Shown piece after piece: positions 2,224 to 19,673 of a DNA stretch of 33,878 bases (position 1 is the stretch's first letter; each line of letters starts with the position of its first letter). Position numbers and translations under genes: made by a program. Source of the stretch: Candidatus Pacearchaeota archaeon (lineage in GTDB: Archaea > Nanobdellota > Nanobdellia > Pacearchaeales > GW2011-AR1); assembly GCA_014728565.1 (NCBI GenBank), contig WJLK01000005.1:1-33878 (forward strand). The letters are read 5' to 3'. The notes beneath the pieces were generated by a model, which saw only the letters and a list, made by a program, of their open reading frames with translations, was not told the DNA's origin and did no database searches.

Positions 2224-2781
2224 TTAACTACCTTTACATACTTCTAGATTAACACTCAATCTTCCTGAACTAAATCCACTAACATGTATAAGATGATTTC
2301 CTCCAGGTTTTGAAACACAACCCTCAAACTTTCCATCTCCAAAATTAATCATTTCCTCATCTGGTTCAAGATCATTTAAAGAATCATAATATATCCTCAG
2401 ATTATAAGCTCTGTAAGGAGATTCTGGACTAACTCTCAGTGATTCACCAAGAACTTCCATGAGATTTTCCTCAAGAGCACTGCATACACTCCTGCCGTCA
2501 ATACAGTTCTGATTAGGGCTTTTGTAACAAGTTCTGATTAAATCCTGAATTTCTCTGTACTGGGGAACAAAATTTATAGCACAATCTGATGTATAATACA
2601 TAGTTGCTTCTAGAAGATTAGATATCTCAATACTTGTCCCTTTAGAAGGACCTTTTGTAACATACAAAGATAGAAAAATAACTCCAATTATTGCTACAAT
2701 AGCAACTATAATTACAAATCCTGCTATTTCATGTTGGGCATATTTTGATTTAACAAATTTTTTATTTTTATTTTTTCTCAT
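2224..2781 (-). CDS. N-terminally anchored / prepilin-like secreted protein (185 aa), last gene of the island
   Basis: Basic N-terminus ...KSKYAQ followed by the hydrophobic helix HEIAGFVIIVAIVAIIGVIFLSLYV; several Cys in the ectodomain. 1-nt gap to the upstream gene. The cleavage motif is less canonical than in its neighbours. Confidence 0.45.
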   Translation of the reverse strand: MRKNKNKKFVKSKYAQHEIAGFVIIVAIVAIIGVIFLSLYVTKGPSKGTSIEISNLLEATMYYTSDCAINFVPQYREIQDLIRTCYKSPNQNCIDGRSVCSALEENLMEVLGESLRVSPESPYRAYNLRIYYDSLNDLEPDEEMINFGDGKFEGCVSKPGGNHLIHVSGFSSGRLSVNLEVCKGS

Positions 2782-2782
2782 A

Positions 2783-3823
2783 CTACTCTCCTCTATCTAG
2801 TTTAGTTCCTGCAACCAGCATTGCAACCTCACATTTGTCATAAGTGTATCCATTTTCATACATTTTTCTGCAAAGAGCAACATAACTTGATACCTTTCTT
2901 TCATTCTCAACATCTTTATCATAAATATCAAAAACATCGCAATTAAGATCACATTTTTCAGGAACAAGAACCTCTTCATAACACTCTTCTTCTTGTACAG
3001 GAGTACATTCCTCTACAGTTGATTCTATTCTTATCTCATAATCACATCCACCTATATTATCCCTTATTCTATCATCTTCAAAAAATACTATAAACTCAGT
3101 TGCACCAGCAGGAACATTTACAGTTTTAAGCTGATGTAGAAAATATTTTTTTCCAACTGGCTGATTTTTATTGTAAAATCTTCCCTGAGGGCCACTCATA
3201 GCACCTTTTACATAAGTTGTACTAGAGCAATCAAGTATATCTCTCATATGCTGAGGATCAATGAATTGTCCGCTTATTTTTGTTAGAGTGAATTTATCTC
3301 CAGGTGAAAAATCCCTTGGAGATTTAGCAGCAATTACATGGTCACTTTCTGGTTTTTTTGAAGCTATGTAACCTTTAACCCATTTAGTATCTGTACAAGG
3401 ATTATATTCAATAGGACAGGGCACAGGTGTTTTAATTGATTTCACAAGAGAGCCTCCTTTGCAGGCATTGTAGTCAGCATAAGTGCATTTAATCATCTCT
3501 TCTTCAGTTTTTCCAAAACCACTTGGTCTCACAACTTTTAAACTACTAAAAGGCCAGAAATATTCATAATTATCCTTATCTAGTAAAACTATTAGTTTGT
3601 CAGCATCAATGCAGTTTGATTTTGAGGCAACACAACTGAATTCAGGAGAGTCTGCTAAATTAACTAGAGCTGAAAGAGTTCTCTCTTCAGCTATTTTCAT
3701 TGCCTCCTCTCTTAGATTACCCATGAAAACTGCTACTACAAATAAACCTACTAAAACAAAGAAAAACATAAGAGCAACTATCATAAATGCCATTTCCTGT
3801 ATTTTTATCTGAGCTTTTTTCAT
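2783..3823 (-). CDS. Prepilin-like (class III signal peptide) Cys-rich secreted protein, 346 aa
   Basis: MKKAQIKIQEMAFMIVALMFFFVLVGLFVVAVFM N-terminus and a Cys-rich globular part. ATG at 3823. Confidence 0.5.
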   Translation of the reverse strand: MKKAQIKIQEMAFMIVALMFFFVLVGLFVVAVFMGNLREEAMKIAEERTLSALVNLADSPEFSCVASKSNCIDADKLIVLLDKDNYEYFWPFSSLKVVRPSGFGKTEEEMIKCTYADYNACKGGSLVKSIKTPVPCPIEYNPCTDTKWVKGYIASKKPESDHVIAAKSPRDFSPGDKFTLTKISGQFIDPQHMRDILDCSSTTYVKGAMSGPQGRFYNKNQPVGKKYFLHQLKTVNVPAGATEFIVFFEDDRIRDNIGGCDYEIRIESTVEECTPVQEEECYEEVLVPEKCDLNCDVFDIYDKDVENERKVSSYVALCRKMYENGYTYDKCEVAMLVAGTKLDRGE

Positions 3824-3837
3824 TTTGATATTTTTAT

Positions 3838-3860
3838 TTTTTGATGTTTTTGAAATCTTT
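3838..3860. repeat. Copy 1 of a perfect 23-bp direct repeat tttttgatgtttttgaaatcttt
   Basis: Identical to 3945-3967. Lies 14 nt upstream of the ATG of the 346-aa gene on the minus strand. Confidence 0.9.
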
Positions 3861-3895
3861 CACCCCCCTTTTGAGTCTTGGTTTGCTTAAAGATT

Positions 3896-3926
3896 CAGAA
3901 AATTCTTCATTCTTCTGAATTTTCTG
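3896..3926 (-). other. Stem-loop with a 10-bp perfect stem in the intergenic gap
   Basis: cagaaaattc (3896-3905) pairs with gaattttctg (3917-3926) around an 11-nt loop. A second 8-bp hairpin, caaaaatc-tttt-gatttttg, sits at 3931-3950. No clear oligo-T tract follows on the transcribed strand, so I do not call it a terminator. Confidence 0.5.
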
Positions 3927-3944
3927 GGCACAAAAATCTTTTGA

Positions 3945-3967
3945 TTTTTGATGTTTTTGAAATCTTT
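3945..3967. repeat. Copy 2 of the perfect 23-bp direct repeat
   Basis: Identical to 3838-3860. Ends 1 nt downstream of the stop codon of the 306-aa gene (3969-3971). Confidence 0.9.
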
Positions 3968-3968
3968 A

Positions 3969-4889
3969 CTAGTATAGTTGACATCCTGTAACTGCAGCCT
4001 CGTTTATTGAATCTATATCTTCGATTTCATCCAGTAGATAGATAAGATCTCTTGAACTTTCAATATCTCCTATTGTTCTGGATAGTTTAGGTCCTATTTT
4101 TGATTCACAGTTCACTCTTTTGAGTATATCAATTTTTTCAATGTAGATCTTAGCTAGTTCATTATGCCTGCTTTTTAATCTTCTAACATTGCATTCGTAT
4201 ATCTCTGGAGATGAAAAGATAGCAGCATATAAAAGGTCTCCTATGAAATATAAAGTTTCACTATTTTTTTTAACATAACTTCCAGTCAGGGAAATATCAA
4301 TATCACAATTTCCTGATTTAAAACAAACACTTATGCCATCACAATCTTCTGATGAGTTTACAAAATGCACATTGTTTATATTTAATCTTTGAAGCTCATC
4401 CTGGATTATGTCAGGAGAGTCATAGAAACAGTAATCACCAGCAGTTACAATTACCAAATCAGAAACCTTGAAAGGCATAAAAAAAGGCACTGAAAAAATA
4501 TAATAATTATTTCCCTGAACCTCATTTTCAGCAAAAACATATTTATCTACAACAGTTATTCTGTAGCCTTCTTCAGCTTCCTCTCTTCCAAGAGTCTCCT
4601 GGGAAAAGGAGATGTAATTTTTACCAAACGGAGGGTTTAAAACAGAATCACACTGATAATAGGTCTTAACTTTGTTTCTAAATCCAATCTCCATTGATTT
4701 TCCAGAAGCTAATCCAGTTTCTAGAGGATCAAAAAGAGATATAAATCTAGCTGCACTTTCTGTAAAAACAGTTTTTTCACCAGTTCCTATAATCTTGCTT
4801 GCAGTAAAAATTGCAAAAAACAGAATTATTCCTCCTACAATAATTGCAAAAATCCAGTTAAAACTCATACCAATTGCTTTTTTTCTCAT
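3969..4889 (-). CDS. Prepilin-like / N-terminally anchored secreted protein, 306 aa
   Basis: MRKKAIGMSFNWIFAIIVGGIILFFAIF N-terminus. 4-nt ATGA-type overlap with the upstream gene. Confidence 0.45.
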   Translation of the reverse strand: MRKKAIGMSFNWIFAIIVGGIILFFAIFTASKIIGTGEKTVFTESAARFISLFDPLETGLASGKSMEIGFRNKVKTYYQCDSVLNPPFGKNYISFSQETLGREEAEEGYRITVVDKYVFAENEVQGNNYYIFSVPFFMPFKVSDLVIVTAGDYCFYDSPDIIQDELQRLNINNVHFVNSSEDCDGISVCFKSGNCDIDISLTGSYVKKNSETLYFIGDLLYAAIFSSPEIYECNVRRLKSRHNELAKIYIEKIDILKRVNCESKIGPKLSRTIGDIESSRDLIYLLDEIEDIDSINEAAVTGCQLY

Positions 4890-5641: not shown

Positions 5642-5654
5642 TTTAAACCTTTTA

Positions 5655-6191
5655 TTAGGAAATTTCCTGATTTTTTGGTTCTCTTATTTTAACAAGACCT
5701 TCATTGAATAGTTTTATAATTCTCATTCTAACAACACCATCCTCGACAGGAACACAAAAAGGATTTGAAGATCTAGTTATAAACTCAATATCCAGGTGTT
5801 TTATCTCATACATCTCCATATTACATGCAGACCCTATTGGATAAAGAAAAAGATTAGACTCCATTCCTTCATAAACACTTAAATCCAGACCAATATTTTC
5901 ATAATCTCCTCTGAGACTTTTTGACAGATTTGCAAAACAGACAAACTCTACATTTGTTGGAAGAGTGCTTTTAAATTCATAATCATCACTCTGACTGTTC
6001 CAGGCTCTATCAATTGTCTCCTTAAAATCATCAGAAAAAAGACCTACTTTTGCACAATCTCTGGTTTTTAAAAAAGATCTCACTACCATAAAAGCTATAA
6101 CTAAAAAAAATATTATGAGTATTATTGAGAATATTGTTGAAAAAGATATACCAATACTACTGCCCTGTGCTTTTTTACCTCTTTTTATCAT
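5655..6191 (-). CDS. Prepilin-like protein, 178 aa
   Basis: MIKRGKKAQGSSIGISFSTIFSIILIIFFLVIAFMVV N-terminus. Confidence 0.5.
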   Translation of the reverse strand: MIKRGKKAQGSSIGISFSTIFSIILIIFFLVIAFMVVRSFLKTRDCAKVGLFSDDFKETIDRAWNSQSDDYEFKSTLPTNVEFVCFANLSKSLRGDYENIGLDLSVYEGMESNLFLYPIGSACNMEMYEIKHLDIEFITRSSNPFCVPVEDGVVRMRIIKLFNEGLVKIREPKNQEIS

Positions 6192-6237
6192 CTCATAACT
6201 AAAAAAACTTTATTAATAAATCTTATTGAACAAGAAT

Positions 6238-7146
6238 TTATTGAAGTGTGATAATCGGAGAATGTTTTTCAACAATTCTATAACCCTCTCTGATTATATC
6301 ATAATCAACCTTCCCCTGGCTAGTCTGAATGACTCTTCCTTTATGATCTCCAAACTTCATCCTAATATCAGGAGGTATTTTACCTTCATATCCTGCATCT
6401 TCTGGAATTTCTCCTATTTGAAATTCTAATCTTCCTGTTCTAGAATCTAAACCATAGTTAACAAACTGATCTCCAAGAACAGCAAAAAAAGGACCCTGAG
6501 TTTCAATTATAGCACCCTGGTCATATAATCTAAAAGGCTTAGGATTAGGTTTCCTTACATTAATTTTTCCAGGAGGTGAATTTTCTGCACCTGCTATAAT
6601 TGCAAGTGATTCTCCTCTCTGAATATCAACATATCTATTGCCTCTTAAAAATTCTACACTTCCTGTTTCTTTTCCTGCTGGAGCAGAAATTTCTACTCCT
6701 TGCTCTCCTAAAAAAACATAAGGTTCTGGAAAATCTCTTGGAGGAGTGTTAAAACTAACATAGGTTCTACCCTCTTTAGGGCCATTTATCTCAAGTTCTC
6801 TTATAAGAAGTTTCTGACCTGGAGAAAGGTAAGGTTGTTCATATTTTGGATCAACAGGCAATATCTCTCCATGAGGAAATCTAACATGTCTTGTTTCTTC
6901 TGCTTGCTCCTCTCTAATAGTTCTTATAGCCTCTCTTCTTGCTCCTCTTCCAGGAGGACCAGCCATGTCATCAGGACCTGAACCATCAACAGCAACAGGG
7001 ACTTTTCTTCCATTTACCCAGACATAAAAGACATCAGCTCTTGCTGAATTTTCATTTCCCAATACATCTCCTAATAAAATCCCAGCTAAACCTGCTGCAC
7101 TGGCTTTTAAAAAATTTCTTCTTGGAATTTTTTGTTTAGATTTCAT
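6238..7146 (-). CDS. Secreted protein with a twin-arginine (Tat) signal peptide; function unknown
   Basis: MKSKQKIPRRNFLKASAAGLAGILLG...ARA is a textbook S/T-R-R-x-F-L-K plus h-region plus AxA signal. I place the start at the ATG at 7146, not the track start at 7191. The protein has no Cys and is Gly/Pro/Arg/Glu-rich, unlike its neighbours. Confidence 0.6.
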   Translation of the reverse strand: MKSKQKIPRRNFLKASAAGLAGILLGDVLGNENSARADVFYVWVNGRKVPVAVDGSGPDDMAGPPGRGARREAIRTIREEQAEETRHVRFPHGEILPVDPKYEQPYLSPGQKLLIRELEINGPKEGRTYVSFNTPPRDFPEPYVFLGEQGVEISAPAGKETGSVEFLRGNRYVDIQRGESLAIIAGAENSPPGKINVRKPNPKPFRLYDQGAIIETQGPFFAVLGDQFVNYGLDSRTGRLEFQIGEIPEDAGYEGKIPPDIRMKFGDHKGRVIQTSQGKVDYDIIREGYRIVEKHSPIITLQ

Positions 7147-7224
7147 GTATTTTATAGGAAAAACAAGTTTATAAATCTTTTTATTTTTCATTACTACATA
7201 ATAGTAATATTTTTAAGATATAAA

Positions 7225-9345
7225 TTAGAATCCCAATACCTTTCTTGTCCAGGATTCTCCATAGGTTCTTTTTATAAATTCTTGTGTAGAAGGATAAAGA
7301 AGATTTTTAATTTTATTTTTTGCTCCTGCTTCTTCAATACCATAAAATCTCTGTTGCTGTTTTATATGAGCATCCATTGATCTTTCCGTACTATAGGCTA
7401 GAAAATTCCTGAATTTTTCTCCATCAGGACTATTCCAGTAATTTTTATCATAATGCTCAACAGCAGCTCCAACTGCAAGAGATGCAGCCATTGATTCTCC
7501 TAATAAAGCGCTCTCTCTTCTGTTAAGCTGATTAGAAACAATTGCACCATTTGTATAAGCAGTTAATTCATCAAAAATATAAAGAGGCTGATATTTCCAA
7601 TCACCATTTGCAGCCATATAAAAACTTTCTCCTGATAAATCATTATGAATGTATTTTTTAATATGATTAAAATTAATATTAGGTTCCTTTAAAATAACAG
7701 CCTTTCCATTCAATAAATAAAATCCATTGTATCCTCCTAAAACAGTATAAGCTCCTTCCTGTCTAACTGGGATTTTTGGAGCTATTTTATCTCTTATATA
7801 ACTATTAATACCATGAGTTGTTCCATGACCTAAATCTCCACTAGGACCGTCTTCATAAGGGTCAAATCTTCCATTGTTATGAGCTTTTAAATCCTCTAAA
7901 GCACTTTTATAAGATCCTTTATTTCCATAATCTGTAAATTCAACCTTGCTTTCATAAGAAATAACATAATTTCTTAGAACATTATTCATTTCAGTAATGG
8001 GTTTTGTAATAAGAGACAATGCTTTATTAGAATTTTGCTTATACATATCAAAAAACTTCTCTCGGTTTTCCTGGGTTAGTTTATAAAAAGAAACTCTATT
8101 GTATATTGCCTCTTCTTCTGTTTTTTTTGCAAAACCACCAATATCAGTTATATAATAATCCAAATCATGCTTCCATGTGTGAGTCTTTCCTGTTTTAGGG
8201 TCTGTGTAACTTGCTGTATATGCATTACCATCCTCATCCCTGCTTCTTATCTGAAAATTAATACTGTCTTTTCCCTGATTAGCAAACCTGCTGTGAATTC
8301 CAGTAGATGCTATCTGCACTGTTCCAGCTTTTAGATAACCCTCAACATACTCTGCAAACTGCTGACCTGTGTAAACAGTAAAAGGACCATCAGCACTAAC
8401 AAGATTAATTCTACCAGCTCTTTTCTCAATAGTGACAAAACTACTCTGTTCCATTTTATCACTACCAGCCTGAACCAGAAGAAAATCATTATCACTAATT
8501 TCAACACCTCTGGAATGTCCTGGAAGAAACCATAGGGAAGCTGACTCACCACCTTCAGGAGCACCAAAAGCTATCTTATCCTCATCATAAAAAACAATAA
8601 AAGCTTTTCCAAGTTCTTTAGCCTCACTTTTGCTTTTGTCAAACAAAAGATAGGTATCATAGTCATAAAACTCCTCTCCATCAGCTTTAGCAAGAGTTCC
8701 AATCTCTATTCTGTCAACAACTCCTTTTTTAACATAGAACTCACCTAACTTATTATCAAAATACAACCTGCTTTGAATATCATCAAGCTTCACACTCTCA
8801 AAAACATATTTTTCATCATCAATATTTATTGTTATTTCTTCTCCAACAAAAACAACTTCATCAAGGACATTTTCCTTATCTTCATCAAGTTGTTCAGGCC
8901 TTGAAATTTCTGCATCTTCAGGAATCTCTATTACTAGCTTGTTATCTTTTAGGATGATATGACTTCCTTCTGGAAGTTTGTACTTGTAATTTCCTAGTTT
9001 GTATTCTGTCTCTTCCTCTTCATCTCCTACAACAAAATCAGCTTCAATTAGATTTCCATCTTTAAATTTAAATTTAGAATCTTCTTTTAAATTATCAAAA
9101 ATCCTGTATTCATCCTGATTTTTCTCTCTGTATTTTAATGAACCTCCTTCATCAATAACCAAAGATTCTTCATCTGATTCTTTTACATTATCAGCAATAA
9201 GATACTCTCCACCATATTCTGAAAATCCATAAAGATGACTGTAATCATTTCCCTCAATTTCTTCTATCTCCTCTAAATCCTGAGCATAAACAAAACTAGA
9301 ATTAATTAGAATTACAATTAAAAAAAATAAACCTGCTTTTTTCAT
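7225..9345 (-). CDS. Secreted hypothetical protein, 706 aa, cysteine-free, acidic N-terminal half
   Basis: Sec-type signal MKKAGLFFLIVILINSSFVYAQD. I find no Cys in 706 aa. The C-terminal ~230 aa (GDLGHGTTHGINSY ... FDELTAYTNGA ...) looks globular, but I do not recognise it. Confidence 0.6.
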   Translation of the reverse strand: MKKAGLFFLIVILINSSFVYAQDLEEIEEIEGNDYSHLYGFSEYGGEYLIADNVKESDEESLVIDEGGSLKYREKNQDEYRIFDNLKEDSKFKFKDGNLIEADFVVGDEEEETEYKLGNYKYKLPEGSHIILKDNKLVIEIPEDAEISRPEQLDEDKENVLDEVVFVGEEITINIDDEKYVFESVKLDDIQSRLYFDNKLGEFYVKKGVVDRIEIGTLAKADGEEFYDYDTYLLFDKSKSEAKELGKAFIVFYDEDKIAFGAPEGGESASLWFLPGHSRGVEISDNDFLLVQAGSDKMEQSSFVTIEKRAGRINLVSADGPFTVYTGQQFAEYVEGYLKAGTVQIASTGIHSRFANQGKDSINFQIRSRDEDGNAYTASYTDPKTGKTHTWKHDLDYYITDIGGFAKKTEEEAIYNRVSFYKLTQENREKFFDMYKQNSNKALSLITKPITEMNNVLRNYVISYESKVEFTDYGNKGSYKSALEDLKAHNNGRFDPYEDGPSGDLGHGTTHGINSYIRDKIAPKIPVRQEGAYTVLGGYNGFYLLNGKAVILKEPNINFNHIKKYIHNDLSGESFYMAANGDWKYQPLYIFDELTAYTNGAIVSNQLNRRESALLGESMAASLAVGAAVEHYDKNYWNSPDGEKFRNFLAYSTERSMDAHIKQQQRFYGIEEAGAKNKIKNLLYPSTQEFIKRTYGESWTRKVLGF

Positions 9346-10210: not shown

Positions 10211-10255
10211 TCTTAGTTAATACCTCTAAAATACAGAGAGTTCATTTTCTAGTTT

Positions 10256-12478
10256 TTAAATCTCAACTCCCCAATCCCATCCATCTTCCCGGTCATCAGT
10301 TGAAATTTCAACAGGTCTTATAATCATTGAACATGAATTAGGATTAGGTTGATTCTCATATTTATCTTTACATCTTATGTAATAATTTTTATTTACCTCC
10401 CAATTGGTTGTATGAATTTCTTCATCCAGTGTGTACATGCTAATACCATCATCAATTTCAAAATTACAGTCAGTATTACTATAACTACAATCTCCTTTTT
10501 CATTGAGTATTAGTTTTAATTCTCCTGCTTCTTTGTAGATCCTTGTTATAATAGGAGGCTGCCTGTCAATTCTTACTGAAAAACTAGTTGAATTATAATC
10601 TGCATTTCCACCTAAGTCAACACACTTGAAAAAATAAGTATAATTCCCTCTTGGCAAATCCTGCCTCTGCTTGTGTTTATTTGAGTTTGTCTCTAGGAAA
10701 AGCACATAATCTTCTTCTCTTGAAGGAGGACTGTTATACCTGTCATTATAATAATAACACCTTGCTTCTCCATTTTTATATCCATTATCAGTTATTATTT
10801 CTAGGAAAACAGCAACAACTCTTGTTGAATCAGCCATCTCTCCAGAAGGTTTTGTATCTATTATATTCAGTGGCTGAGTTCCAATAACAACATACTCATA
10901 ACTCTGGACATTGGTGTTTCTGTCACCCTCTTTAGCCCATGGCTGGTCTTTGCATTTAATATAATAACTATTCTCCTGTCTGTCTTTAATTCCTGTCAAA
11001 GTTGTCTTGCATGTATAAACATTCCTGTTGTTCATCTCCCAAACCTCTGTATCACACTGCATCTCACCTTCCATCAAGTCATAGGATTTATCCTCTCTGC
11101 TCCACTTACAATTAGAAGGCTCATTTACATAAACCTCCAAATCTAACTCACTCTGGTTATATTGAACAGGACTATCACTTGGAATATTGAAGTCAACTAT
11201 TACAGGAGGAGTTGTATCAGGACCTTTTTCAACACAGAAACTAACTGAATACGCATCCTGGTTATAATTTCCATTTCCATCTATACATCTTATGAATAAA
11301 GTATACTCTCCATCATTCTTTAATTCAGGATTAGATGCATTCATTGCAGAAGCTCCTGGAAGCGATAGTTTTTCTGTGTGGTTGTAGATAAAAAATGTAT
11401 TTCCACCAACATAGTATTCCATACTCTCATAATCTGTTTTTAATTTATAATCTATCTTACATTGTGCTGGTTCATTTGTTGTAAATGTAAATTCCAGTGG
11501 AAAAAAAGCCTTTATGCACTCCATGTTTTTTGGTTTAATGTAAACTCCTGTCGAAGGAGGTCTTGTGCTGGTATAAGGTTTGAATATATGGTCCTCACTA
11601 ACCTCTCTAAAAGTAATGATAGGGGATTTGACATCATGAGGATTAATCCATGCACATTTCTGATTTTCAGTTCCTTCATTAATTATCTCACAAGCCTGTC
11701 CCAGGCTTTTACAACTATACTCAGAACATTCTTCAAGGCTATTACATAATTCACAGTCCTCTCCTCCAATTGTAGCCTGCCACGGCAGACAGTAAAATTC
11801 AGTTATTTCAATTGATTTTTTTCTATAGGTTAGAATAAAAATAAGAGCTGCAATTCCAATACCTACTAGAGATGCCATAGGTTCTCCAACAACAGGTTCT
11901 AGTAATCCAGAAACTATTCCTCCGACTGCTCCTGCAACAGCCCCCCATTTAGCTCCTTCCTCTCCTCCAAGTGCTCCTCCAAGTGAACCAAAGATTCCCA
12001 TACTGACACTTACTTTAGTTAACATAGAAGCCATATTTAGTTTGCTGATGTCCCCCCAGACATCACCTCCACCTCCACCTCCAGGAGGAGGGGGAGTAAC
12101 ACCATCATCTCCACCGCCTGTATCACCACCTGTATCACCACCTGTATCACCACCTGTGTCACCTCCGCTACTGTCATCACCACCTACTATAATAGTATCA
12201 TCTCCTGTGCTGGTTCCTCCAGGACCGCTTGTTGGTATAACTCCTGTTCCAGGAGGAATTATAGGTCCTCCTATTTTTGTGATTCCTCCAGCAGTTGTGG
12301 TTGTTGAAGTAGTTCCTGTTACAGCTGGAGGAGTTGTAGTTATTCCTTTAGTTTCAGTAGAAGTTCCTGTTCCTCCTGGATTAACACTATCACTTATTGG
12401 AGCACTCACCAAAAAACTAAATGCTGCAACTGAGATTAAAAGATTTATAATTAATGCAAATGCTTTTATTTTATTCAT
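10256..12478 (-). CDS. Large surface protein, module D: signal peptide, Thr/Gly/Pro linker, hydrophobic helix pair, Cys-knot, four Ig-like repeats
   Basis: I place the start at ATG 12478 (MNKIKAFALIINLLISVAAFSFLVSA). The track start at 12547 would overlap the upstream gene. The protein is homologous to the C-terminal half of the 1173-aa ORF. Confidence 0.7.
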   Translation of the reverse strand: MNKIKAFALIINLLISVAAFSFLVSAPISDSVNPGGTGTSTETKGITTTPPAVTGTTSTTTTAGGITKIGGPIIPPGTGVIPTSGPGGTSTGDDTIIVGGDDSSGGDTGGDTGGDTGGDTGGGDDGVTPPPPGGGGGGDVWGDISKLNMASMLTKVSVSMGIFGSLGGALGGEEGAKWGAVAGAVGGIVSGLLEPVVGEPMASLVGIGIAALIFILTYRKKSIEITEFYCLPWQATIGGEDCELCNSLEECSEYSCKSLGQACEIINEGTENQKCAWINPHDVKSPIITFREVSEDHIFKPYTSTRPPSTGVYIKPKNMECIKAFFPLEFTFTTNEPAQCKIDYKLKTDYESMEYYVGGNTFFIYNHTEKLSLPGASAMNASNPELKNDGEYTLFIRCIDGNGNYNQDAYSVSFCVEKGPDTTPPVIVDFNIPSDSPVQYNQSELDLEVYVNEPSNCKWSREDKSYDLMEGEMQCDTEVWEMNNRNVYTCKTTLTGIKDRQENSYYIKCKDQPWAKEGDRNTNVQSYEYVVIGTQPLNIIDTKPSGEMADSTRVVAVFLEIITDNGYKNGEARCYYYNDRYNSPPSREEDYVLFLETNSNKHKQRQDLPRGNYTYFFKCVDLGGNADYNSTSFSVRIDRQPPIITRIYKEAGELKLILNEKGDCSYSNTDCNFEIDDGISMYTLDEEIHTTNWEVNKNYYIRCKDKYENQPNPNSCSMIIRPVEISTDDREDGWDWGVEI
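12121..12168. repeat. 12-bp tandem repeat tatcaccacctg x3 plus one degenerate copy, encoding (GGDT)n on the minus strand
   Basis: Perfect units at 12121-12132, 12133-12144 and 12145-12156; a degenerate unit at 12157-12168. Confidence 0.9.
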
Positions 12479-12506
12479 ATTTTGTTTTTGATTTATTCTC
12501 ATTCTA

Positions 12507-14252
12507 TTATTCAAATTCCTCCCACTCAACATCTTCCTCTTCCTCATCTTCTTCAGAAGGTTCCTCTCCTAATCTTTTTTTGCCATTATCTTTTACATAT
12601 ACTCCCTTGTCAGTATATCTTCCTATAAAATTGACATGATTACCACAGTCTCCAAGACTAATGCACAGCTTGTTCATATTATTCACCCAATTTTGTTCTA
12701 ACACTTCACAATTTTCAACACAGCTCTTTGAACCAAAAATATCCTCTTCAAAAATAACCACCTGTTTTGAATTTCCTAAACTGCATATTGATTTTGCTTT
12801 TCCCTCACTGTTCCAGAATTCAAATCCAGGAGGAACATTTGGCAAACATATTCCACCTCCTGCTAGAATACCCTCTGAATTTTCTTTTACATATCTAGCG
12901 TAATCTTCTTCTTTATTAAAAACATCATCAAAAAACTCATCATCACCTTCATCACTACTTTCTCCAATTTTTCCCTCTCCAGCAGCTTCATAATGAGCTC
13001 CTGTCATCCAGTAGCAATCTCTTAAATCTTTATTTTCACAATCATACCTCTCTATCTGGTCAATACAATCTGACCATCTGTTGACTCTGCATGCAGCTTC
13101 CTGGAAATTTCCATAAGCACTTCCAAATTCTTCTGAGATACAAACTTCATTTCTAAAATCAGCACAAGGCTCTATTGTTTCCTCACCATGTACACAGACA
13201 TGCCTGAAATGTCTGCTTCCCACAGGATCTGCTCCATTTCCAGTTTCTCCCTGATAAACACACCAGGATTCTCCGTTTCTGTAGTCATTGCCATTTTCAG
13301 TATTATGGCAATTAATATCATGACATATATGGTCACCATAAGCAGCCTCTCCTTCCTTGCAGATACTTCCTAATAGATATTCACAATTTCCACATGTTTT
13401 TGAGTTTGTATTAGGTTTCCCATATCCACAACTTTCCTGTTTCTGAACTATTTTTTGCCAGTAAGAGGGATCTTTACTGTAGATTTTATTTGCATCATAT
13501 ATATTAGCAGGATTTCCACAACTATCCTTAAAATAAACTTCAAATTTTCCTTCAACACAAATTGTCTCTTTAGTAGGTCCACAATTTGTAGCTAGATCAT
13601 CTGCTGAGCATAAATAATTCTTGAAAAATTCTGTTTCTGAGGTTTGATTTTCACTTTTTTCTTTTGTGGACTCTAGACATTCTCCTCTTGTCATAATTTT
13701 ACAGGTTCTTTCACCGTCAACCTCATAAACACAAGCTCCTCTATCCTGTCTATAAGCCAGCATAATACAGCTTTTTTCATTAAGAATATCATTTCTGAAG
13801 TTAGTTTCTAGACCGTAGATATTAGAGAGTCTTTTGCATCTTGTTAATGTAACAAAACTAGCCTGGTCTCCAATAAGACAGCATCCTAGATTACATTGAG
13901 GAACAATGCATTGAGAATCATCAACCCAGGTTCCCTTGTTTTCTTCACATACTCTTAAAGGAGTGTTCTCCATACATAAACCTTCTTCAGTATCAATGCA
14001 ACAACCTAATTTGCAGAAACTTGTTGCTTCACAACTAGTAGGTGTTTTTCTGTAAGGTTTTCCTGTTTCAGGATCAACTGAATTAAGACAGTTCTCTTCG
14101 AGAGTATTCTGGCACCAGGCACCATTTTCTGTTTTTTCACAACATACATTATACTCAGGAGTTTCGTCCTGAGCAAAAATAAAGGTAATTAAAAATAAAC
14201 TTGCTACTAGGAATAATAAAATCTTACTTGCCTTTATCTTATTTTTATTCAT
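12507..14252 (-). CDS. Secreted cysteine-rich protein, module C, 581 aa
   Basis: Signal peptide MNKNKIKASKILLFLVASLFLITFIFAQD. I count about 43 Cys. It is homologous to the N-terminal half of the 1173-aa ORF (RNGESWC, DPVGSRH, IEPCADFRNEVC, SLGDCG). The C-terminus is an acidic tail, EEPSEEDEEEEDVEWEEFE. Confidence 0.75.
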   Translation of the reverse strand: MNKNKIKASKILLFLVASLFLITFIFAQDETPEYNVCCEKTENGAWCQNTLEENCLNSVDPETGKPYRKTPTSCEATSFCKLGCCIDTEEGLCMENTPLRVCEENKGTWVDDSQCIVPQCNLGCCLIGDQASFVTLTRCKRLSNIYGLETNFRNDILNEKSCIMLAYRQDRGACVYEVDGERTCKIMTRGECLESTKEKSENQTSETEFFKNYLCSADDLATNCGPTKETICVEGKFEVYFKDSCGNPANIYDANKIYSKDPSYWQKIVQKQESCGYGKPNTNSKTCGNCEYLLGSICKEGEAAYGDHICHDINCHNTENGNDYRNGESWCVYQGETGNGADPVGSRHFRHVCVHGEETIEPCADFRNEVCISEEFGSAYGNFQEAACRVNRWSDCIDQIERYDCENKDLRDCYWMTGAHYEAAGEGKIGESSDEGDDEFFDDVFNKEEDYARYVKENSEGILAGGGICLPNVPPGFEFWNSEGKAKSICSLGNSKQVVIFEEDIFGSKSCVENCEVLEQNWVNNMNKLCISLGDCGNHVNFIGRYTDKGVYVKDNGKKRLGEEPSEEDEEEEDVEWEEFE

Positions 14253-14293: not shown

Positions 14294-14320
14294 TTTTTAT
14301 TCATTTTGAGTTTTGGTTTT
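14291..14320. repeat. Copy B of the perfect 30-bp direct repeat
   Basis: Covers the last codons and the stop (VKNQNSK*) of the 270-aa gene. Confidence 0.9.
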
Positions 14321-15113
14321 TTACAGGATTTCTTATCTCTACTAATCCTGGAGGAAATGCAACACTTCTTGTTGAAAACATGAATTTCTCATCTGTCTTT
14401 CTATCAGTTAATATATAAACTTTTGTTCCGTCACTTTTTGTTTTTTTCTCAACCTTTAGATTTGGGAAATTCATCATGTAATCCATGGTTTCACTATCTC
14501 CGTATCTAGCCTCCCAATTTAGTATAGAGCTTGTTATCATTGTGAACTCGTATAATTTTGAATCAACAGCTGTTCTAATTGATTTATAAGTCTCTCTGTT
14601 ATTTTTTTCTATGCTTAAATCAAGTTCTAGACTTATTAAAACAGTTTCAGGTATTATTTCTATATCTAATTCAGGTTCTTTCATTGAAACTGTATAACCA
14701 TCTTTTTCAAGAGCATCTTTCATAGAGTAGATGCAGTTTTTAATAATTGGATTCATATAGTTCTCTAACTCTCTTTCAACACTCTGCTTTAACAGTGGTT
14801 TTTGCATTACACATCTTTTGTAATTTTCCTCGGTGTAACATAGATATTCAACTCTGTTTCCCTGATACATATAGTAAAGTTCAGGGTCTATACTACCTCC
14901 CTGAACTTCAAGTATATTAATCCCCTCTTCTGAAGATTTTAAAAGGCAGTTTTCAATTTCATTCAAAGGAGGTTTTCCAACAAAAATATTTGTTATATTC
15001 TCTCTCTGAAGATAAATTAATAAAATTATCACAACTAAAATCAGTATACTTATAATTACAAATACAGTGACTTGAGATTTTTTACTCATGTTTTCCTTCT
15101 TTTTTATACTCAT
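14301..15113 (-). CDS. Prepilin-like protein, family P1 (paralog of 18640-19500), 270 aa
   Basis: The N-terminus is MSKKSQVTVFVIISILILVV; the internal ATG at 15089 would give a canonical short signal. It shares GG, LCY....YK.C...PLL, E.ENY..P and the terminal PPGL with the 286-aa protein. Confidence 0.65.
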   Translation of the reverse strand: MSIKKKENMSKKSQVTVFVIISILILVVIILLIYLQRENITNIFVGKPPLNEIENCLLKSSEEGINILEVQGGSIDPELYYMYQGNRVEYLCYTEENYKRCVMQKPLLKQSVERELENYMNPIIKNCIYSMKDALEKDGYTVSMKEPELDIEIIPETVLISLELDLSIEKNNRETYKSIRTAVDSKLYEFTMITSSILNWEARYGDSETMDYMMNFPNLKVEKKTKSDGTKVYILTDRKTDEKFMFSTRSVAFPPGLVEIRNPVKNQNSK

Positions 15114-15140
15114 CTTTTAAGCTAATTTTGTTTATAAATT

Positions 15141-18100
15141 TTAGTAGAGAGGGTCATATGCCCTGATTGTTTTTTTCGAACCTTTGTTACCAAATTCATC
15201 CTCACACTGTATGTAGTATGTTCTTGTAACCCACTTAGCAGTGTGCTCTAGACCATCTGTCGTATACATCTCACTTGCATTATCAAACTTAAATGCTCTG
15301 TGAAAACCATATCTGCAGACTGATTCTTCCTCTGTCCTTATCATTAAACCTCCGTTATAATACATTCTACTAATCCCAGGACTTCCTGTATCAATTTTAA
15401 CACTAAATACACTTGAGGCTTTGGCTGTATTCCCTGCATCATCTTCACAAGTGAAAGTTAGATTGTACCTTCCTCTTGTTGCGCTTGTTATTTCATAGGA
15501 ATGAAATACATCATAGGTCTCTGTAAACATATCAGAATAACCATTTCCACTCCATCTACATGTTGCTACACCTCCCTGAGCTCCTCCTTCTGTTTTTAAT
15601 CTTAGGGTGACAGTAGTAGGTTCAACACCTGCAATAACCTCTTCACCATTGCCAGGTTTAACTTCAACTATTTTTAATTTATTTTTTGATGTTGACAATG
15701 TATAAACATAACTTTCTTGCATTGTGTTTTTATTTTCAGATATATCCTGGCATCTAAGATAAAATGTACTGTGATTGGTTATCCCTGTCAGAGTTGTATT
15801 ACATGGAAGTCCATAAGGAGTGTAATCTGCAGGGTCGTGTGAACAATCCATCTTATTTGTCATTTTTTCATATGCCTCATCTTCTAGTGACCATCTGCAA
15901 TTAGAAGGCTCATTAACATAAACTATTGCAGGAGTTTCTGTTACACCATACGGTATAAAAGCTTTGTTTAAAGGATCTGTAAGAATTATTCTTGGAGGAG
16001 TTAAATCAGGACCTCTTTTAACACAAGTTTCTATTACATAGTTTCCAGGATTGACAATTCCATCAGCAGTCCTGCATTTTACATAAAATTTTGTCTCTCC
16101 TAACTCATCTAATTCTGCCTCTGTCAAATTATAAGGATCTTTAAAGGCTTCTGGAGCAGGATAAAAATACATCATCCTGTGGGCAGGAAGTAAACTACTT
16201 CCCTTAACTCCGAAATAATCATTCATATTTTCGTATCTATCTGCAGGGTTGGTGCTATATTTGCATTTTGCAAATGGGTCAACTTTAATTCCAAATTTTA
16301 CAGGTGTATAAGCATCAATACAACCCTTATTTTTATCATCCACTATTTTAAATCCACTTCCAGTGACTTCATAGTAACTATAGTTTTCTGATATATAGCT
16401 ATAAAGAGGCATTATTTCAGGAGCTTTATTATTTTTAGGACGACTAACACACATCTCATTTCCAGTTCCTTTATTAATGTAGTTACATTTCTGGCCTAAA
16501 CTCTGACATCTATATTCTGTACAAGGAACCTCAAGATCTTCATTACACCTAATGCAGTCATCACCTCCAACAGGAGGTTCCCATGGATAACACGAGAAAT
16601 CAATATTTACTTTTACAATCCATCTTATTGCAAATATAAATGCGAGCATAGCTGCTACTAAGGATAGCATTATGCTTTCAGTTATTAGATAGATAAGCAT
16701 TCCTGCTATCATTGCTGCTAGATATTCAAAATGTTTGTTGGTTATCTCTTTATAAACTATTTGGGAACTTATGCTTGACATTGTTGTTGCAATTCCATTT
16801 GTGTACATAGAGAAATCAATAGGGCTTGCAGCTATTTCTCCCTGAGCCAATCCAGGTATATCCTCCTCATTAGGATCCTCATCCATTATTTTAAGTAATA
16901 GAGGAGAACCATATGCTCCTGATACCTGCAATAATTCTCTTTCAAAGGCACTTAAATTACCCTGAGGATCATATTCTCCTTCTGTTACCTCTTGAAGACT
17001 ACCTGGATTTAAAGTTTCAAAAAATTCAAAATTACCTGGTTCAGCAGGTTTCTGGTCTGGTGGAGCTGTTGCATATTTTGAAAATTCATTTAACTGAGTC
17101 TGTGTTAGTCTTGGAGGACCATTTGTTAAGTCAGGCTTAGAAGATTTTACTCCGTAACCTCCGTCAGTAGGAACACCTATGTAATTGATATAAGCACCAC
17201 AATCTCCCAGACTGACACAAAAATCATTCATCTCTCTGGTGAACTTTTCAGTATGGCAATCACAATTCTCCTTACATGAACATCCAAATATGCCGCAAAC
17301 CCATATCTCTGTGCATCGCATACTTGCAATACTGCAGACTTTTTCTGCAGAATTCATTACTTCCATTCCTTCTACAAGATTATACTCTCCTATTAGGTTG
17401 AATCCAGGAGGATACTCAGGAAGACATACTTTGAAGTGAAAACCTCCTCCCATCTCAATTTCCTTAAGCCAACAGTCAGGATGTTTTTCACATAAACTTT
17501 CAATTCTTTCAACACCCTCGGTATCTCCTTTTGAATTCAGAGCAAGACAAGCTCTCCAACCATTAACTCTGCATGCAGCTTGAGAAACTGTCTGTCCGCA
17601 GGTTAGTGTGGTATCCTGCTGTACACATATTTCATTTCTATAATCTGCACAAGGTTCTATTCTTTCAGTTCCCATATAACATATGTGTTTTACATGTCTG
17701 CTTCCAACAGGATCTTTTCCATCTCCAATTTTACCATCATATTCACACCATGATTCTCCATTTCTTCTTACTACTCCGTCAACCTCACAGTTAATGTTCT
17801 GACAGTTGTATTCCCCATCCTTTTTTCCACAATAGGTTCCCTGGAAAAAATTACAGTCTATAGCAACTCCTTCAGGATTATCACATGAATCAAACCAGTA
17901 AACATCCTCCTCATTCTCTAAACATCCTTTATGATCATGAGGCTTGCATGTTGTATTTAGTTCAGGATTAGAACAATAGTAACCTTTGAAAAAATGTTCA
18001 TTAAAATCACTTTTAGTTCTTGATGCACACTCCTCTGCTGTTATATACAGGCATTTTTTTTCACCTTCCTCTGTCTCATAGGTACATGCACCCATGTCCT

Positions 18101-18638
18101 CTTTTGAGACAGAGAGTAGGCATTCAATCTCAGTATTGTGAGCTTCATCTCTTCTCCATTCTGTTGGAACATCTTCGTTTTCAGTATTTCCAAGCCACTC
18201 ACAATTTTTTTCAGTTGTCCAGACTGCCTCATCTCCCATGATACAGCAACCTTTTTCACATTCTTTTATATTGCAGAATTGATCTTCCTTGAAGGTTCCT
18301 CCTAAATTTTCACAATTTCTGAAAGAAGACCTTACATTACATATTCCAGTCTCATCACTAATACAACACCCCATTCTGCAAAATTCTGTCAGTTCACAAA
18401 GAGTAGGTGCTATATCAAAATCCTGATTGCATTGCCATGCAGGAACATACTGGCATCTGCTTCCATTCTGAGTCTCTTCACAACAAACCTCTCCCATTGC
18501 TCCCTGCTGAGCATCAACACTCTCTATGTTTTTTGTTCCTTCATAGACAATATATGAAAAAGCAAAACTGCTTATAATCAAGATCATTATCTGTAGATAA
18601 CCGATGTTTGCTTTTTTGTTAATCATTTTTTTTATCAT
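15141..18638 (-). CDS. Giant cysteine-rich surface protein, fused modules C+D (~1165 aa)
   Basis: The track start at 18662 is a GTG overlapping the upstream gene. ATG at 18638 or 18626 (MINKKANIGYLQIMILIISSFAFSYIV) is more plausible. N-half resembles the 581-aa protein; a central hydrophobic pair follows (YLAAMIAGMLIYLI, MLSLVAAMLAFIFAI); C-half resembles 10256-12478. Confidence 0.75.
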   Translation of the reverse strand: MIKKMINKKANIGYLQIMILIISSFAFSYIVYEGTKNIESVDAQQGAMGEVCCEETQNGSRCQYVPAWQCNQDFDIAPTLCELTEFCRMGCCISDETGICNVRSSFRNCENLGGTFKEDQFCNIKECEKGCCIMGDEAVWTTEKNCEWLGNTENEDVPTEWRRDEAHNTEIECLLSVSKEDMGACTYETEEGEKKCLYITAEECASRTKSDFNEHFFKGYYCSNPELNTTCKPHDHKGCLENEEDVYWFDSCDNPEGVAIDCNFFQGTYCGKKDGEYNCQNINCEVDGVVRRNGESWCEYDGKIGDGKDPVGSRHVKHICYMGTERIEPCADYRNEICVQQDTTLTCGQTVSQAACRVNGWRACLALNSKGDTEGVERIESLCEKHPDCWLKEIEMGGGFHFKVCLPEYPPGFNLIGEYNLVEGMEVMNSAEKVCSIASMRCTEIWVCGIFGCSCKENCDCHTEKFTREMNDFCVSLGDCGAYINYIGVPTDGGYGVKSSKPDLTNGPPRLTQTQLNEFSKYATAPPDQKPAEPGNFEFFETLNPGSLQEVTEGEYDPQGNLSAFERELLQVSGAYGSPLLLKIMDEDPNEEDIPGLAQGEIAASPIDFSMYTNGIATTMSSISSQIVYKEITNKHFEYLAAMIAGMLIYLITESIMLSLVAAMLAFIFAIRWIVKVNIDFSCYPWEPPVGGDDCIRCNEDLEVPCTEYRCQSLGQKCNYINKGTGNEMCVSRPKNNKAPEIMPLYSYISENYSYYEVTGSGFKIVDDKNKGCIDAYTPVKFGIKVDPFAKCKYSTNPADRYENMNDYFGVKGSSLLPAHRMMYFYPAPEAFKDPYNLTEAELDELGETKFYVKCRTADGIVNPGNYVIETCVKRGPDLTPPRIILTDPLNKAFIPYGVTETPAIVYVNEPSNCRWSLEDEAYEKMTNKMDCSHDPADYTPYGLPCNTTLTGITNHSTFYLRCQDISENKNTMQESYVYTLSTSKNKLKIVEVKPGNGEEVIAGVEPTTVTLRLKTEGGAQGGVATCRWSGNGYSDMFTETYDVFHSYEITSATRGRYNLTFTCEDDAGNTAKASSVFSVKIDTGSPGISRMYYNGGLMIRTEEESVCRYGFHRAFKFDNASEMYTTDGLEHTAKWVTRTYYIQCEDEFGNKGSKKTIRAYDPLY

Positions 18639-18639
18639 T

Positions 18640-19500
18640 TTAAAGTCCTGGAGGTAATACACAGCTTCTTACAGCAAATGTGAATTTTTGACCACTCGCC
18701 CTTTCCTCAATAGTATAGAGAGTGTTTGAATCTCCAGTAATGAACCTCTTAATATCAAATTCATTATGAAGAACCATGTATCCAACAGCATTAAAATCAC
18801 AATATTTAGCTTCCTGGTTGACAATTTCCATTGCTATTTCAGCGAGATTATACATAGGATGAACAAGATTCATAGTAAATTTCTCAAACTCTTTTTTATC
18901 CTCTTCATTTTTCATACTGAAATATTTATCAATTTCAACTGAAACATGCCTTGATTGGATTCTTGCATTTATCTTTAAGTCATCTGGATTTTCAATTTCA
19001 TATTTTTGCTCTAGATTTTTCTGAAGTGCCTGAAAACATTCATATACCTTAGGATAGATATAATTTTCAATTTCTTTCTGTATATGCTCTATTAGTAAAG
19101 GTCTCTGATTTATACACTTTTTATATAATTGAGAATTATAGCATAGAAACGTTCTATCTATTCCCTTATAAAGAACACTTCCTCTTGGATGTATATCTCC
19201 ACCATGTTCAGATATAATTTCTATTGCCTCTTCTGTAGCATCTCTTGTGCATGATTCAATATAAGCCTGAGGATTTTCTTCATCATATGCCTCTGTTTCT
19301 GCAGGCCTTAAAAGCAAAAGGAATATTAAAATTAGAACTATTAGCATTAAACCAAGAACTACAAATATTGTTACCTGAGATTTTTTATTTATTTTAAGTT
19401 CTGGTTTTGATAAAACTTGTTTTAAAAAGTTTTCACTCTTTCCAGATTCTGGTTTTGATAAAACTTGTTTTAAAAAGTTTTCACTTATTTTATCATCCAT
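18640..19500 (-). CDS. Prepilin-like protein, family P1, with an unusual 36-codon repeat-containing N-terminal extension (286 aa)
   Basis: The class III motif INKKSQVTIFVVLGLMLIVL begins at residue 37. Upstream lies MDDKI(SENFLKQVLSKPE)SGK(SENFLKQVLSKPE)LK. ATG at 19500 overlaps the wHTH gene by 16 nt. Confidence 0.6.
   Translation of the reverse strand: MDDKISENFLKQVLSKPESGKSENFLKQVLSKPELKINKKSQVTIFVVLGLMLIVLILIFLLLLRPAETEAYDEENPQAYIESCTRDATEEAIEIISEHGGDIHPRGSVLYKGIDRTFLCYNSQLYKKCINQRPLLIEHIQKEIENYIYPKVYECFQALQKNLEQKYEIENPDDLKINARIQSRHVSVEIDKYFSMKNEEDKKEFEKFTMNLVHPMYNLAEIAMEIVNQEAKYCDFNAVGYMVLHNEFDIKRFITGDSNTLYTIEERASGQKFTFAVRSCVLPPGL
19399..19437. repeat. Copy 1 of a perfect 39-bp repeat (period 48 bp) containing the palindromic leader motif
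   Basis: ttctggttttgataaaacttgttttaaaaagttttcact, identical to 19447-19485. Palindromic core aaaacttgttttaaaaagtttt at 19412-19433. Confidence 0.9.
19447..19485. repeat. Copy 2 of the perfect 39-bp repeat
   Basis: Identical to 19399-19437. Palindromic core at 19460-19481. Abuts the stop codon of the wHTH gene (19485-19487). Confidence 0.9.
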
Positions 19501-19673
19501 AGATTTACCCCCTCTTTTTTTATTCTGATAATTTTTTCATCAAGTGCAAGCTCCATAAGATAGCTCTGGGCAGTGTTCCAGCTAACTCCTAGAGTCTTGG
19601 CTAATTCAGAACTAGTTATCACCCTCTTTTCCCCAAGATATTTTAATATCTTACTTATTAACTCTTTATTCAT
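19485..19673 (-). CDS. Small winged-helix-turn-helix DNA-binding protein (62 aa), first gene of the island
   Basis: ITSSELAKTLGVSWNTAQSYLMELALDEKIIRIKKEGVNLWMI has the helix-turn-helix plus beta-wing pattern of ArsR/TrmB/MarR-like wHTH domains. It overlaps the next gene. Confidence 0.6.
   Translation of the reverse strand: MNKELISKILKYLGEKRVITSSELAKTLGVSWNTAQSYLMELALDEKIIRIKKEGVNLWMIK

Follow-up and report, generated by a model that had tools for sequence, protein, structure and literature searches.

The window analyzed here is a 33,878-bp contig (WJLK01000005.1, assembly GCA_014728565.1) of 'Candidatus Pacearchaeota archaeon', a source in keeping with the DPANN-like origin expected in the original prediction, which a model had made from the sequence alone. 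Between positions 2224 and 19673, this contig carries a cluster of 14 genes, all on the minus strand and joined by gaps or overlaps of at most 48 nt, except for two spacers of 173 nt (10083-10255) and 145 nt (3824-3968), which upholds the tight one-strand packing described earlier. The cluster (locus tags GF386_00130-00185) encodes a presumed winged helix-turn-helix (wHTH) regulator, recognized as such in the prediction and by Pfam profiles, eight pilin-like proteins (P-A, P-B, P-C1, P-C2, m178, m306, m346, and m185), and the larger proteins denoted BIG, CYS, CHALF, S706, and S317 (Table 1); four cluster or flank proteins were looked up, and each is annotated 'hypothetical protein'. The cluster is a putative archaeal pilin/adhesin locus composed of unnamed protein families, with unusual giant proteins that have three transmembrane (TM) segments, and with no linked motor.

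Table 1. Genes and other features of the cluster and its surroundings in the window (ORF, open reading frame; the arrow marks the predicted cleavage site)
Feature	Position	Strand	Product or sequence	Remarks
wHTH regulator (presumed)	19485..19673	-	62 aa	first cluster gene; Pfam HTH_24 and FaeA above cut-offs
P-A	18640..19500	-	286 aa; KKS↓QVTIFVV	directly precedes BIG; 41-residue leader
BIG	15141..18662	-	1173-aa ORF from GTG; likely ATG at 18638, giving ~1165 aa	giant membrane protein; 65 Cys
P-B	14301..15113	-	270 aa; KKS↓QVTVFVI	precedes CYS
CYS	12507..14252	-	581 aa; Sec-type signal; 43 Cys	paralogue of BIG N-terminal half
CHALF	10256..12547	-	763-aa ORF; likely start at 12478, giving ~740 aa; 21 Cys	paralogue of BIG C-terminal half
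P-C1	9342..10082	-	246 aa; KRG↓QITVFVI	4-nt overlap with S706 start
S706	7225..9345	-	706 aa; Sec signal; zero Cys	variable family, with differing C-terminal domains elsewhere
S317	6238..7191	-	317 aa; twin-arginine (Tat) signal	weakly similar to middle of S706
m178	5655..6191	-	KKA↓QGSSIGISF	first gene of four-gene pilin-like block
P-C2	4886..5641	-	251 aa	P-C1 paralogue, 47% identity; sits between m178 and m306
m306	3969..4889	-	KKA↓IGMSFNW	second gene of block; 37 metagenome loci
m346	2783..3823	-	KKA↓QIKIQEMAF	third gene of block
m185	2224..2781	-	KYA↓QHEIAGFV	fourth and last gene of block
Candidate promoter/operator	19674..19970		AT-rich, 297 nt	between PCNA gene and first cluster gene; putative function
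PCNA	19971..20717			housekeeping flank
Primase	20841..22388			housekeeping flank
MetK	986..2161			housekeeping flank
Zot-like protein	169..969	+	266 aa	N-terminal hydrophobic segment and P-loop ATPase domain
Tyrosine (Xer-type) recombinase	32654..33523			13 kb from cluster, past housekeeping genes
Cys-rich protein	22434..24266	+	610 aa	membrane-anchored; 28 Cys; proline-rich tail
Sequon-rich protein	24326..25597	+	423 aa	16 N-glycosylation sequons

The prediction ascribed prepilin-like N-termini to eight proteins of the cluster, and all eight indeed begin with a basic stretch followed by a small residue, a Q or I, and a hydrophobic helix, which is the make-up of class III signals (basic leader, small residue at position -1, and hydrophobic helix of ~20 residues). 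Of the motif assigned to all of them ([KR]-[GSA]-Q-[VI]-T-x-F-V), the part Q-[VI]-T-x-F-[VI] is present in four (286, 270, 246, and 251 aa) and absent from the other four, which have conserved motifs of their own. A loose scan for the motif in the window beyond the cluster returned one spurious 50-aa ORF only. All-versus-all blastp and profile comparison unite the four motif-bearing proteins in a single family, P (P-A with P-B, E = 6e-50). A profile derived from these four paralogues and searched against 1.84 billion representative proteins matched 7,738 representatives, 571 of them at E <= 1e-30. Among the best 150 of the 7,738, 149 have K/R at -2, G (66%), A (23%), or S (9%) at -1, and an invariant Q at +1, followed by [VIL][TAS][IL][FWY][IV]I and the hydrophobic helix; in most of these proteins, the Q is found at residue 4-30. 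The motif is kept in the orthologues of P-A (9/9), P-B (14/14), and P-C (14/15), and the other families likewise keep their variants: KK[A/G]↓I.[MV].FNW in m306 (20/20), [G/A/S]↓Q[LI][KR]IQEM in m346 (18/19), and [S/A/G]↓Q.E[IM].GF in m185 (15/18).

The small residue and the invariant Gln match the requirements of a class III signal peptidase, and cleavage is predicted on this basis; the pilin peptidase EppA of Methanococcus has been reported to cleave only where a Gln is present at +1 (PMC4390842). A mere membrane anchor would require neither, which favours a class-III-type signal. Judged by their sequences, these N-termini thus are prepilin-like beyond chance and behave as class III signals under purifying selection. 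Five unrelated families with such signals are represented in the cluster, namely P, m178, m306, m346, and m185. Beyond the N-terminus, profile comparison rejected a common globular fold or ancestry both among the four m proteins and between them and P. No window protein matched Pilin_N, Class_IIIsignal/DUF361, or N_methyl in Pfam at E <= 0.01, and NCBIfam yielded no such match either; the P profile found nothing among PDB sequences, and a word-indexed homologue search with P-C1 retrieved P-C1 itself only.

The leader of P-A contains a 48-nt tandem duplication (SENFLKQVLSKPE twice, 19382-19477). Long leaders with a repeated cleavage-like motif occur among P-A, P-B, m346, and m185 orthologues as well (L003, L012, L019, L020, L025, L039, and L044; compared loci are cited by such numbers throughout), with three copies of KKSQLKIQ in one L025 protein; this points either to frequent duplication of leaders or to mis-set start codons. 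The m346 orthologues are 170-222 aa long, and the window copy has an additional Cys-rich insert of ~150 aa.

The prediction singled out three large surface proteins, of 581, ~1165, and ~741 aa; these are present (CYS, BIG, and CHALF, respectively), but a fourth large protein, S706, was missed, and the Tat signal of S317 was passed over as well. A Cys content of about 7% had been counted for one of the three; that of CYS is 7.4%. Comparison by blastp shows that CYS aligns with residues 25-521 of BIG (32% identity, E = 1e-76) and CHALF with residues 648-1160 (32% identity, E = 6e-66), so that BIG corresponds to CYS plus the C-terminal part of CHALF, and the cluster specifies a pair of paralogous giants, of which one is divided over two genes. 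In the AlphaFold model (pLDDT 80, pTM 0.59), BIG consists of an N-terminal anchor (KKA↓NIGYLQI), a Cys-rich beta domain (~57-520) that carries most of the invariant Cys in the homologue alignment, a disordered acidic linker, a TM hairpin (645-678), a small Cys knot, and 4-5 immunoglobulin (Ig)-like beta-sandwich domains. The hairpin comprises two short hydrophobic helices (645-661 and 664-678) with a polar T-Q/E-S turn that is kept across homologues, and the N-terminus is likewise modeled as a helix. About half of the BIG orthologues start with K.A↓G[MI]SY[LV][EQ]I, a sequence similar to the G-M-S-F core found in m306 and m178. The homologues detected for BIG number 811, of which the best 120 are mostly full length, with 38-53% identity, and the named ones come from Pacearchaeota or Nanoarchaeia; CYS orthologues share 50-61% identity. 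CHALF is built of an N-terminal anchor, a Gly/Thr/Pro-rich linker, hydrophobic segments, and the BIG-like C-terminal part, with a weak match to Big_13. The low-complexity linker of CHALF includes GDTG repeats encoded by a 12-nt unit repeated 4.3 times (12112-12163).

The large proteins had been said to fall outside named families, and this was borne out: beyond the Tat signal, the weak Big_13 match, and generic Ig domains, nothing was found in Pfam, NCBIfam, PHROGs, or PDB. The Foldseek matches listed for the BIG model are only arrays of Ig or fibronectin type III domains; those in PDB and BFVD include receptor phosphatases, cadherins, ICAM-5, SiiE, RTX adhesins, GhpA, and phage tail fibres, and nothing among those listed points to the Cys-rich half. 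Searches of PDB sequences with the BIG profile and with an HExxH-bearing S706 orthologue retrieved nothing, and no profile match to the S-layer domains S_layer_N or S_layer_C was detected in BIG, CYS, or CHALF. The evidence supports large proteins that are extracytoplasmic and disulfide-rich, with Ig-like repeats of the adhesin type; the location follows from the signal sequences, the invariant Cys, and a thioredoxin-domain partner in L001. The TM hairpin places both large domains of BIG outside the cell. According to the model, the giants are embedded in the membrane via this internal hairpin and are not free filament-tip adhesins.

To assess conservation, we compared four loci around BIG homologues, two around P homologues, 14 from GTDB species genomes (anchored on CHALF), and 37 metagenome loci (anchored on m306). 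A conserved gene order, which the prediction had proposed as a check, is present in all informative related loci of Pacearchaeota, Woesearchaeota, and Nanoarchaeota. It reads (primase, PCNA), wHTH, P-A, BIG, P-B, CYS, CHALF, then zero to three modules of P-C plus an S706-like gene, then m178, m306, m346, m185, and finally (MetK), a small regulator, and an S-layer protein (Pfam S_layer_C), so that the usual site of the cluster is between PCNA and the S-layer gene. All 16 metagenome loci of at least 6 kb have the order m178-m306-m346-m185, which protein homology also identifies in L007, L009, and L012; L055, L056, and L058 have genes of matching sizes in this order. Directly downstream of every P gene lies a gene for a large protein that is secreted or membrane-bound, and in many cases the stop codon of the first overlaps the start codon of the second. 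The wHTH orthologue (63-77% identity) occupies the same position in L001, L005, L006, L009, L014, L016, and L055, and L003 has a ribbon-helix-helix protein in its place. The P-C/S706 modules are missing from the compact clusters L009 and L055, and L058 lacks P-A and BIG in addition, which defines a minimal core of P, CYS, CHALF, and the four-gene block; in L039, L044, and L053, CYS and CHALF are fused into a second BIG-like protein of 1074-1425 aa.

The median identity to the window proteins is 58% for CYS, 54% for CHALF, 46-56% for the m block, 49% for P-B, 44% for P-A, 42% for BIG, 38% for P-C, and 28% for S706, compared with 61% for primase and 71% for PCNA. CYS and CHALF are thus conserved near the level of primase, whereas P-C and S706 are far more variable, which gives the cluster a conserved centre and a variable periphery. 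The m178-m306 junction is an insertion hotspot, with P-C2 in the window and two unrelated genes each in L020, L039, and L056 (the first of those in L056 matches Pfam NTP_transf_2/Polbeta). In several genomes, 1-3 small hydrophobic proteins (83-189 aa) that start with M(K/G)(A/G)W(L/K)KGG are encoded just before CYS (L009, 7308-8316; L011, L013, L016, and L017); none is encoded in the window.

The cluster had been designated an island, but no acquisition of foreign DNA was borne out; it is a core syntenic chromosomal locus of ordinary composition, with a GC content of 0.31-0.38 that is close to that of the flanks. The neighbouring genes are housekeeping genes, and LysRS, Hjc, and the Xer-type recombinase lie farther out in the window. 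That the genes for envelope or attachment proteins belong to a mobile element or an integrated virus is an extremely improbable explanation. Many unannotated genes on one strand, together with the recombinase and the Zot-like ATPase, would suit such an element, but the position between PCNA/primase and MetK/S-layer is kept across diverged Pacearchaeota and Woesearchaeota, the composition is uniform, no cluster protein matched a PHROG, and no relative was found among the 2.9 million contigs of IMG/VR; moreover, the recombinase lies beyond the housekeeping genes, and other genomes do not show synteny between the Zot-like gene and the cluster.

The variable S706 family bears on another possibility, a pseudopilus resembling that of type II secretion, which would act as a piston that exports or displays the S706 and S317 enzymes and CYS across the S-layer, with the giants as a conduit. 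The repetition of the P-C + S706 modules, the variation of the S706 C-terminal domains, some of which are enzyme-like, and the combination of several pseudopilin-like genes with membrane proteins all fit this scheme. Yet the compact loci L009, L055, and L058 have no S706 genes, so that S706 secretion cannot be the core function, S706 and S317 already bear Sec or Tat signals, and no ATPase or platform gene is nearby; we regard the scheme as very unlikely. S706 orthologues share 22-44% identity, with a C-terminal thioredoxin domain in L001 and an HExxH motif in the 628-aa protein of L003. The window copy had no Pfam or PDB match, and no S317 orthologue was found in the other loci examined.

As stated in the prediction, the window contains no recognizable assembly machinery: Pfam searches with all proteins and a motif scan detected no PilB/FlaI ATPase, TadC/FlaJ platform, or A24 peptidase. 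Nor were motor genes found near P homologues on long contigs, where all P matches examined belong to the same cluster. The Zot-like ATPase was considered as the lacking motor and rejected, being not syntenic with the cluster elsewhere and giving only generic P-loop profile matches. It scores 22.9 bits against a cut-off of 20.3 for Pfam Zot, with weak PHROG matches to Zot-like proteins and terminases, and is probably unrelated to the cluster. Archaeal pilin genes often sit apart from the ATPase/TadC operon (PMC4858521; 10.64898/2026.04.22.720090), and, for this reason, the absence of the machinery from the window is weak evidence of novelty.

The cluster is probably part of a cell-surface or host-contact apparatus whose motor genes, if any, are encoded elsewhere. 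With somewhat less than even confidence, we favour its interpretation as a minor-pilin/adhesin module that is related to type IV filaments, being derived from components of the archaeal ones, and core to the surface of Pacearchaeota and Woesearchaeota, with the machinery encoded elsewhere. This reading draws on the retention of the P motif in nearly all representatives and of distinct variants in the other families, on the fixed block of four mutually unrelated pilin-like genes, as in minor-pilin sets, on the location of each P gene ahead of a large protein, and on the adhesin-like character of the C-terminal half of BIG, whose best structural matches are cell-adhesion receptors, SiiE, RTX adhesins, and GhpA. 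The two tiers of conservation fit a fixed core with a variable periphery. A further argument comes from the distant relative L054 (JACKQG010008248.1, 1118-8854; 27% identity to m306), in which eight or more further pilin-like genes come after the block, four of them of 76-107 aa; this locus could link the m block to a true pilus. A strongly host-attached lifestyle has been reported for Pacearchaeota (10.1101/2020.05.14.094862) and fits the favoured reading.

Under the minor-pilin/adhesin reading, the eight pilin-like proteins would be cleaved after G, A, or S by a prepilin peptidase of the EppA/PibD type encoded elsewhere in the genome, and m178, m306, m346, and m185 would form an initiation or tip complex similar to that of minor pilins, or a short pseudopilus. 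Each P protein would serve as a pilin-like adaptor and partner of the large protein encoded immediately downstream, in analogy to the bacterial PilK-type minor pilin that holds PilC/PilY1. BIG and CYS plus CHALF, held in the membrane by the TM hairpin, would extend a stalk of Ig domains and a Cys-rich head, either towards the S-layer or across it, and bind a partner cell or surface, and the poorly conserved S706 proteins, with their thioredoxin or HExxH-type ends, may be variable, possibly host-directed cargo. Cleavage, filament formation, binding, and host contact are steps that we infer.

Several observations weigh against a filament-related module. The usual residue at -1 in archaeal class III signals is G or A, and the Ser found at this position in some of the proteins falls outside this range. 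The 97 P members searched have no Pfam family match, which for pilin families holds even at E <= 1, and no gene for a small major pilin is present in the Pacearchaeota loci. The AlphaFold model of P-C1 (pLDDT 87, pTM 0.79) comprises a TM helix of 27 residues (5-31), a loop of 11 residues (32-42), and an alpha/beta domain of two helix-plus-sheet units; it lacks the long continuous helix of pilins, and the top 50 Foldseek matches in PDB include no pilin, and none of them is significant (best E = 9e-3). BIG has three TM segments and so could not be extruded on a fibre. Annotation with Pfam and scans for Walker-A and GxGDxK motifs detected no secretion ATPase (PilB/FlaI/VirB11), TadC/FlaJ platform, or A24 peptidase within ~10 kb of the cluster in ~30 informative loci, and type IV pilus (T4P) components have been stated to be missing from DPANN genomes (10.1101/2020.05.14.094862). 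This statement conflicts with the annotation of FlaI/J/K in Nanoarchaeota and Woesearchaeota (PMC8407392); systems 1 and 4A of the type IV filament superfamily (TFF) have also been reported in some DPANN (10.64898/2026.04.22.720090).

The S-layer gene next to the cluster introduces the main rival explanation, possible though less probable, which requires neither a fibre nor an ATPase. Downstream of the cluster and on the opposite strand, ten loci (L009, L019, L022, L028, L029, L038, L049, L053, L055, and L058) encode a regulator of 113-120 aa, with Pfam HVO_A0114 matches in L055 and L058 and a weak MarR PHROG match for the L053 copy. It is followed by a protein of 760-876 aa that combines a 'YPAPF' start with a signal peptide, and in which S_layer_C is recognized in the L055 and L058 copies; this is likely the Pacearchaeota S-layer protein, and the window contig ends before this region. 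None of the five full-length copies that were checked has a C-terminal TM anchor. The m346 proteins end with C-E-[IV]-A-[KM]-[LI]-[IV]-A-G, similar to KVAMLVAGYEAA near the C-terminus of the S-layer proteins of L009, L019, and L053; homology between the two on the basis of a common 'AMLVAG' C-terminal motif was rejected by hhalign (E = 0.4).

The explanation in question is an envelope scaffold without a motor, in which the pilin-like N-termini, whether cleaved or not, would be membrane anchors only and the proteins would constitute a static complex between membrane and S-layer; the stalks of BIG and CHALF would connect the membrane with the S-layer, which has no anchor of its own, or would form a junction between cells, and the P proteins would be dedicated assembly or chaperone partners. 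The archaellum proteins FlaF and FlaG and the sugar-binding proteins of Sulfolobus have class III signals without being fibre subunits and so provide precedents. The adjacency of the S-layer gene and its regulator to the cluster in many genomes, the missing S-layer anchor, and the absence of motor genes from every locus agree with a scaffold, as do the modeled structures, with BIG as an integral membrane protein with an Ig-domain stalk and P as a TM helix, flexible linker, and globular domain that is not pilin-like; the conservation of CYS and CHALF near the housekeeping level suits structural parts more than fast-evolving adhesins. The scaffold, however, leaves unexplained the invariant +1 Gln cleavage motif in five unrelated families and the fixed four-gene block, including the small pilin genes beside that of L054, and no homology was found between the cluster proteins and the S-layer protein. 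It is unlikely, in our estimate, that the cluster specifies a motor-less membrane-anchored organelle of Pacearchaeota and many Woesearchaeota, made from type IV pilin parts, in which such a scaffold would hold the two giants across the S-layer as a symbiont-host junction, possibly a conduit.

In agreement with the prediction, searches of the accessible literature turned up no description of such a cluster, and the known systems resemble it in part. The Epd pilus of Methanococcus maripaludis (TFF system 1) similarly encompasses several different pilin-like proteins per transcription unit, with the cleavage motif [KR][G/A]↓Q, in which the Gln is needed by EppA (PMC4390842), and system 1 has adhesin-like accessory proteins and stand-alone pilin loci and is reported in DPANN (10.64898/2026.04.22.720090). 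However, the Epd locus includes genes for an ATPase, a peptidase of its own, and two platform proteins, and nothing of this kind is found near the cluster, whereas the cluster has no recognized sequence or profile similarity to Pfam pilin families, no small major pilin, and giant three-TM Cys-rich proteins that have no Epd counterpart. The tip complex of bacterial T4P and type II secretion systems (PilI/J/K or GspI/J/K with the ~1100-aa PilC/PilY1; PMC13533445) shares with the cluster the combination of some four minor pilins, constant as a group yet unlike one another, with a very large adhesin-like protein whose gene is located beside that of a pilin-like partner. This is an analogy only: no homology of the cluster proteins to PilY1, PilC, or GspK was detected, no C-terminal PilY1/PilC beta-propeller was matched in Pfam or among the Foldseek matches listed, and BIG is membrane-embedded, in contrast to PilY1, which is soluble at the fibre tip.

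The T4P subclades 4B and 4E of Thermoproteales (Makarova, Koonin and Albers 2016, PMC4858521) are described as combining several small minor pilins with two large proteins, one membrane-anchored and S-layer-like and the other a signal-peptide adhesin or minor pilin, and almost all components have multiple conserved Cys (PMC4858521). Unlike the cluster, these loci, which come from another phylum, also contain the genes for the ATPase and TadC. Surface proteins with a large globular domain and a prepilin-type signal are also known from the Sulfolobus bindosome and from FlaF and FlaG, which contact the S-layer; both systems depend on PibD, and the bindosome also on a dedicated ATPase and membrane protein. 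None of these proteins is homologous to P or the m families. The two helix-plus-sheet units of the P model could fit the description of cls.004634 (CMH64_01370; 'double PepSY-like'), a DPANN-restricted, widespread, uncharacterized family (Makarova et al. 2019, PMC6393860), which may be the P family. The secondary-structure pattern of the P-C1 model is compatible with a PepSY-type description; Pfam and PDB lend it no support, since PepSY was matched neither by the 97 members searched in Pfam nor by the P profile in PDB and is not among the first 50 Foldseek matches.

Beyond the cluster genes, the candidate promoter/operator region contains a 24-nt direct repeat in two copies (19683-19730) and several inverted repeats, and no RNA genes were found in the window by Rfam and ARAGORN. 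The genes for the 610-aa Cys-rich protein and the 423-aa sequon-rich protein are syntenic with the cluster beyond primase and PCNA in L001 and L003, with size-matched genes in L058, and these proteins may belong to the same surface gene neighbourhood. At the contig start (10-85), a perfect tandem repeat of a 15-nt unit (CTGCTAAGGAAACCT, 5.1 copies) could be the last part of a truncated gene, an array with a regulatory role, or an artefact at the edge of the assembly.

Among the tiny symbiotic DPANN archaea, Pacearchaeota and Woesearchaeota are abundant and uncultivated and have a minimal metabolism. They are thought to live attached to other cells, and, to our knowledge, no attachment machinery has so far been assigned to them. 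As a large, unannotated, and strongly conserved cluster that is present in every informative related locus, the genes described here are an obvious candidate for a cell-contact or envelope apparatus of these archaea. The cluster also bears on the question of whether prepilin-type proteins can function without a linked pilus motor and on how the bacterial logic of minor pilins combined with a giant adhesin appears in archaea.

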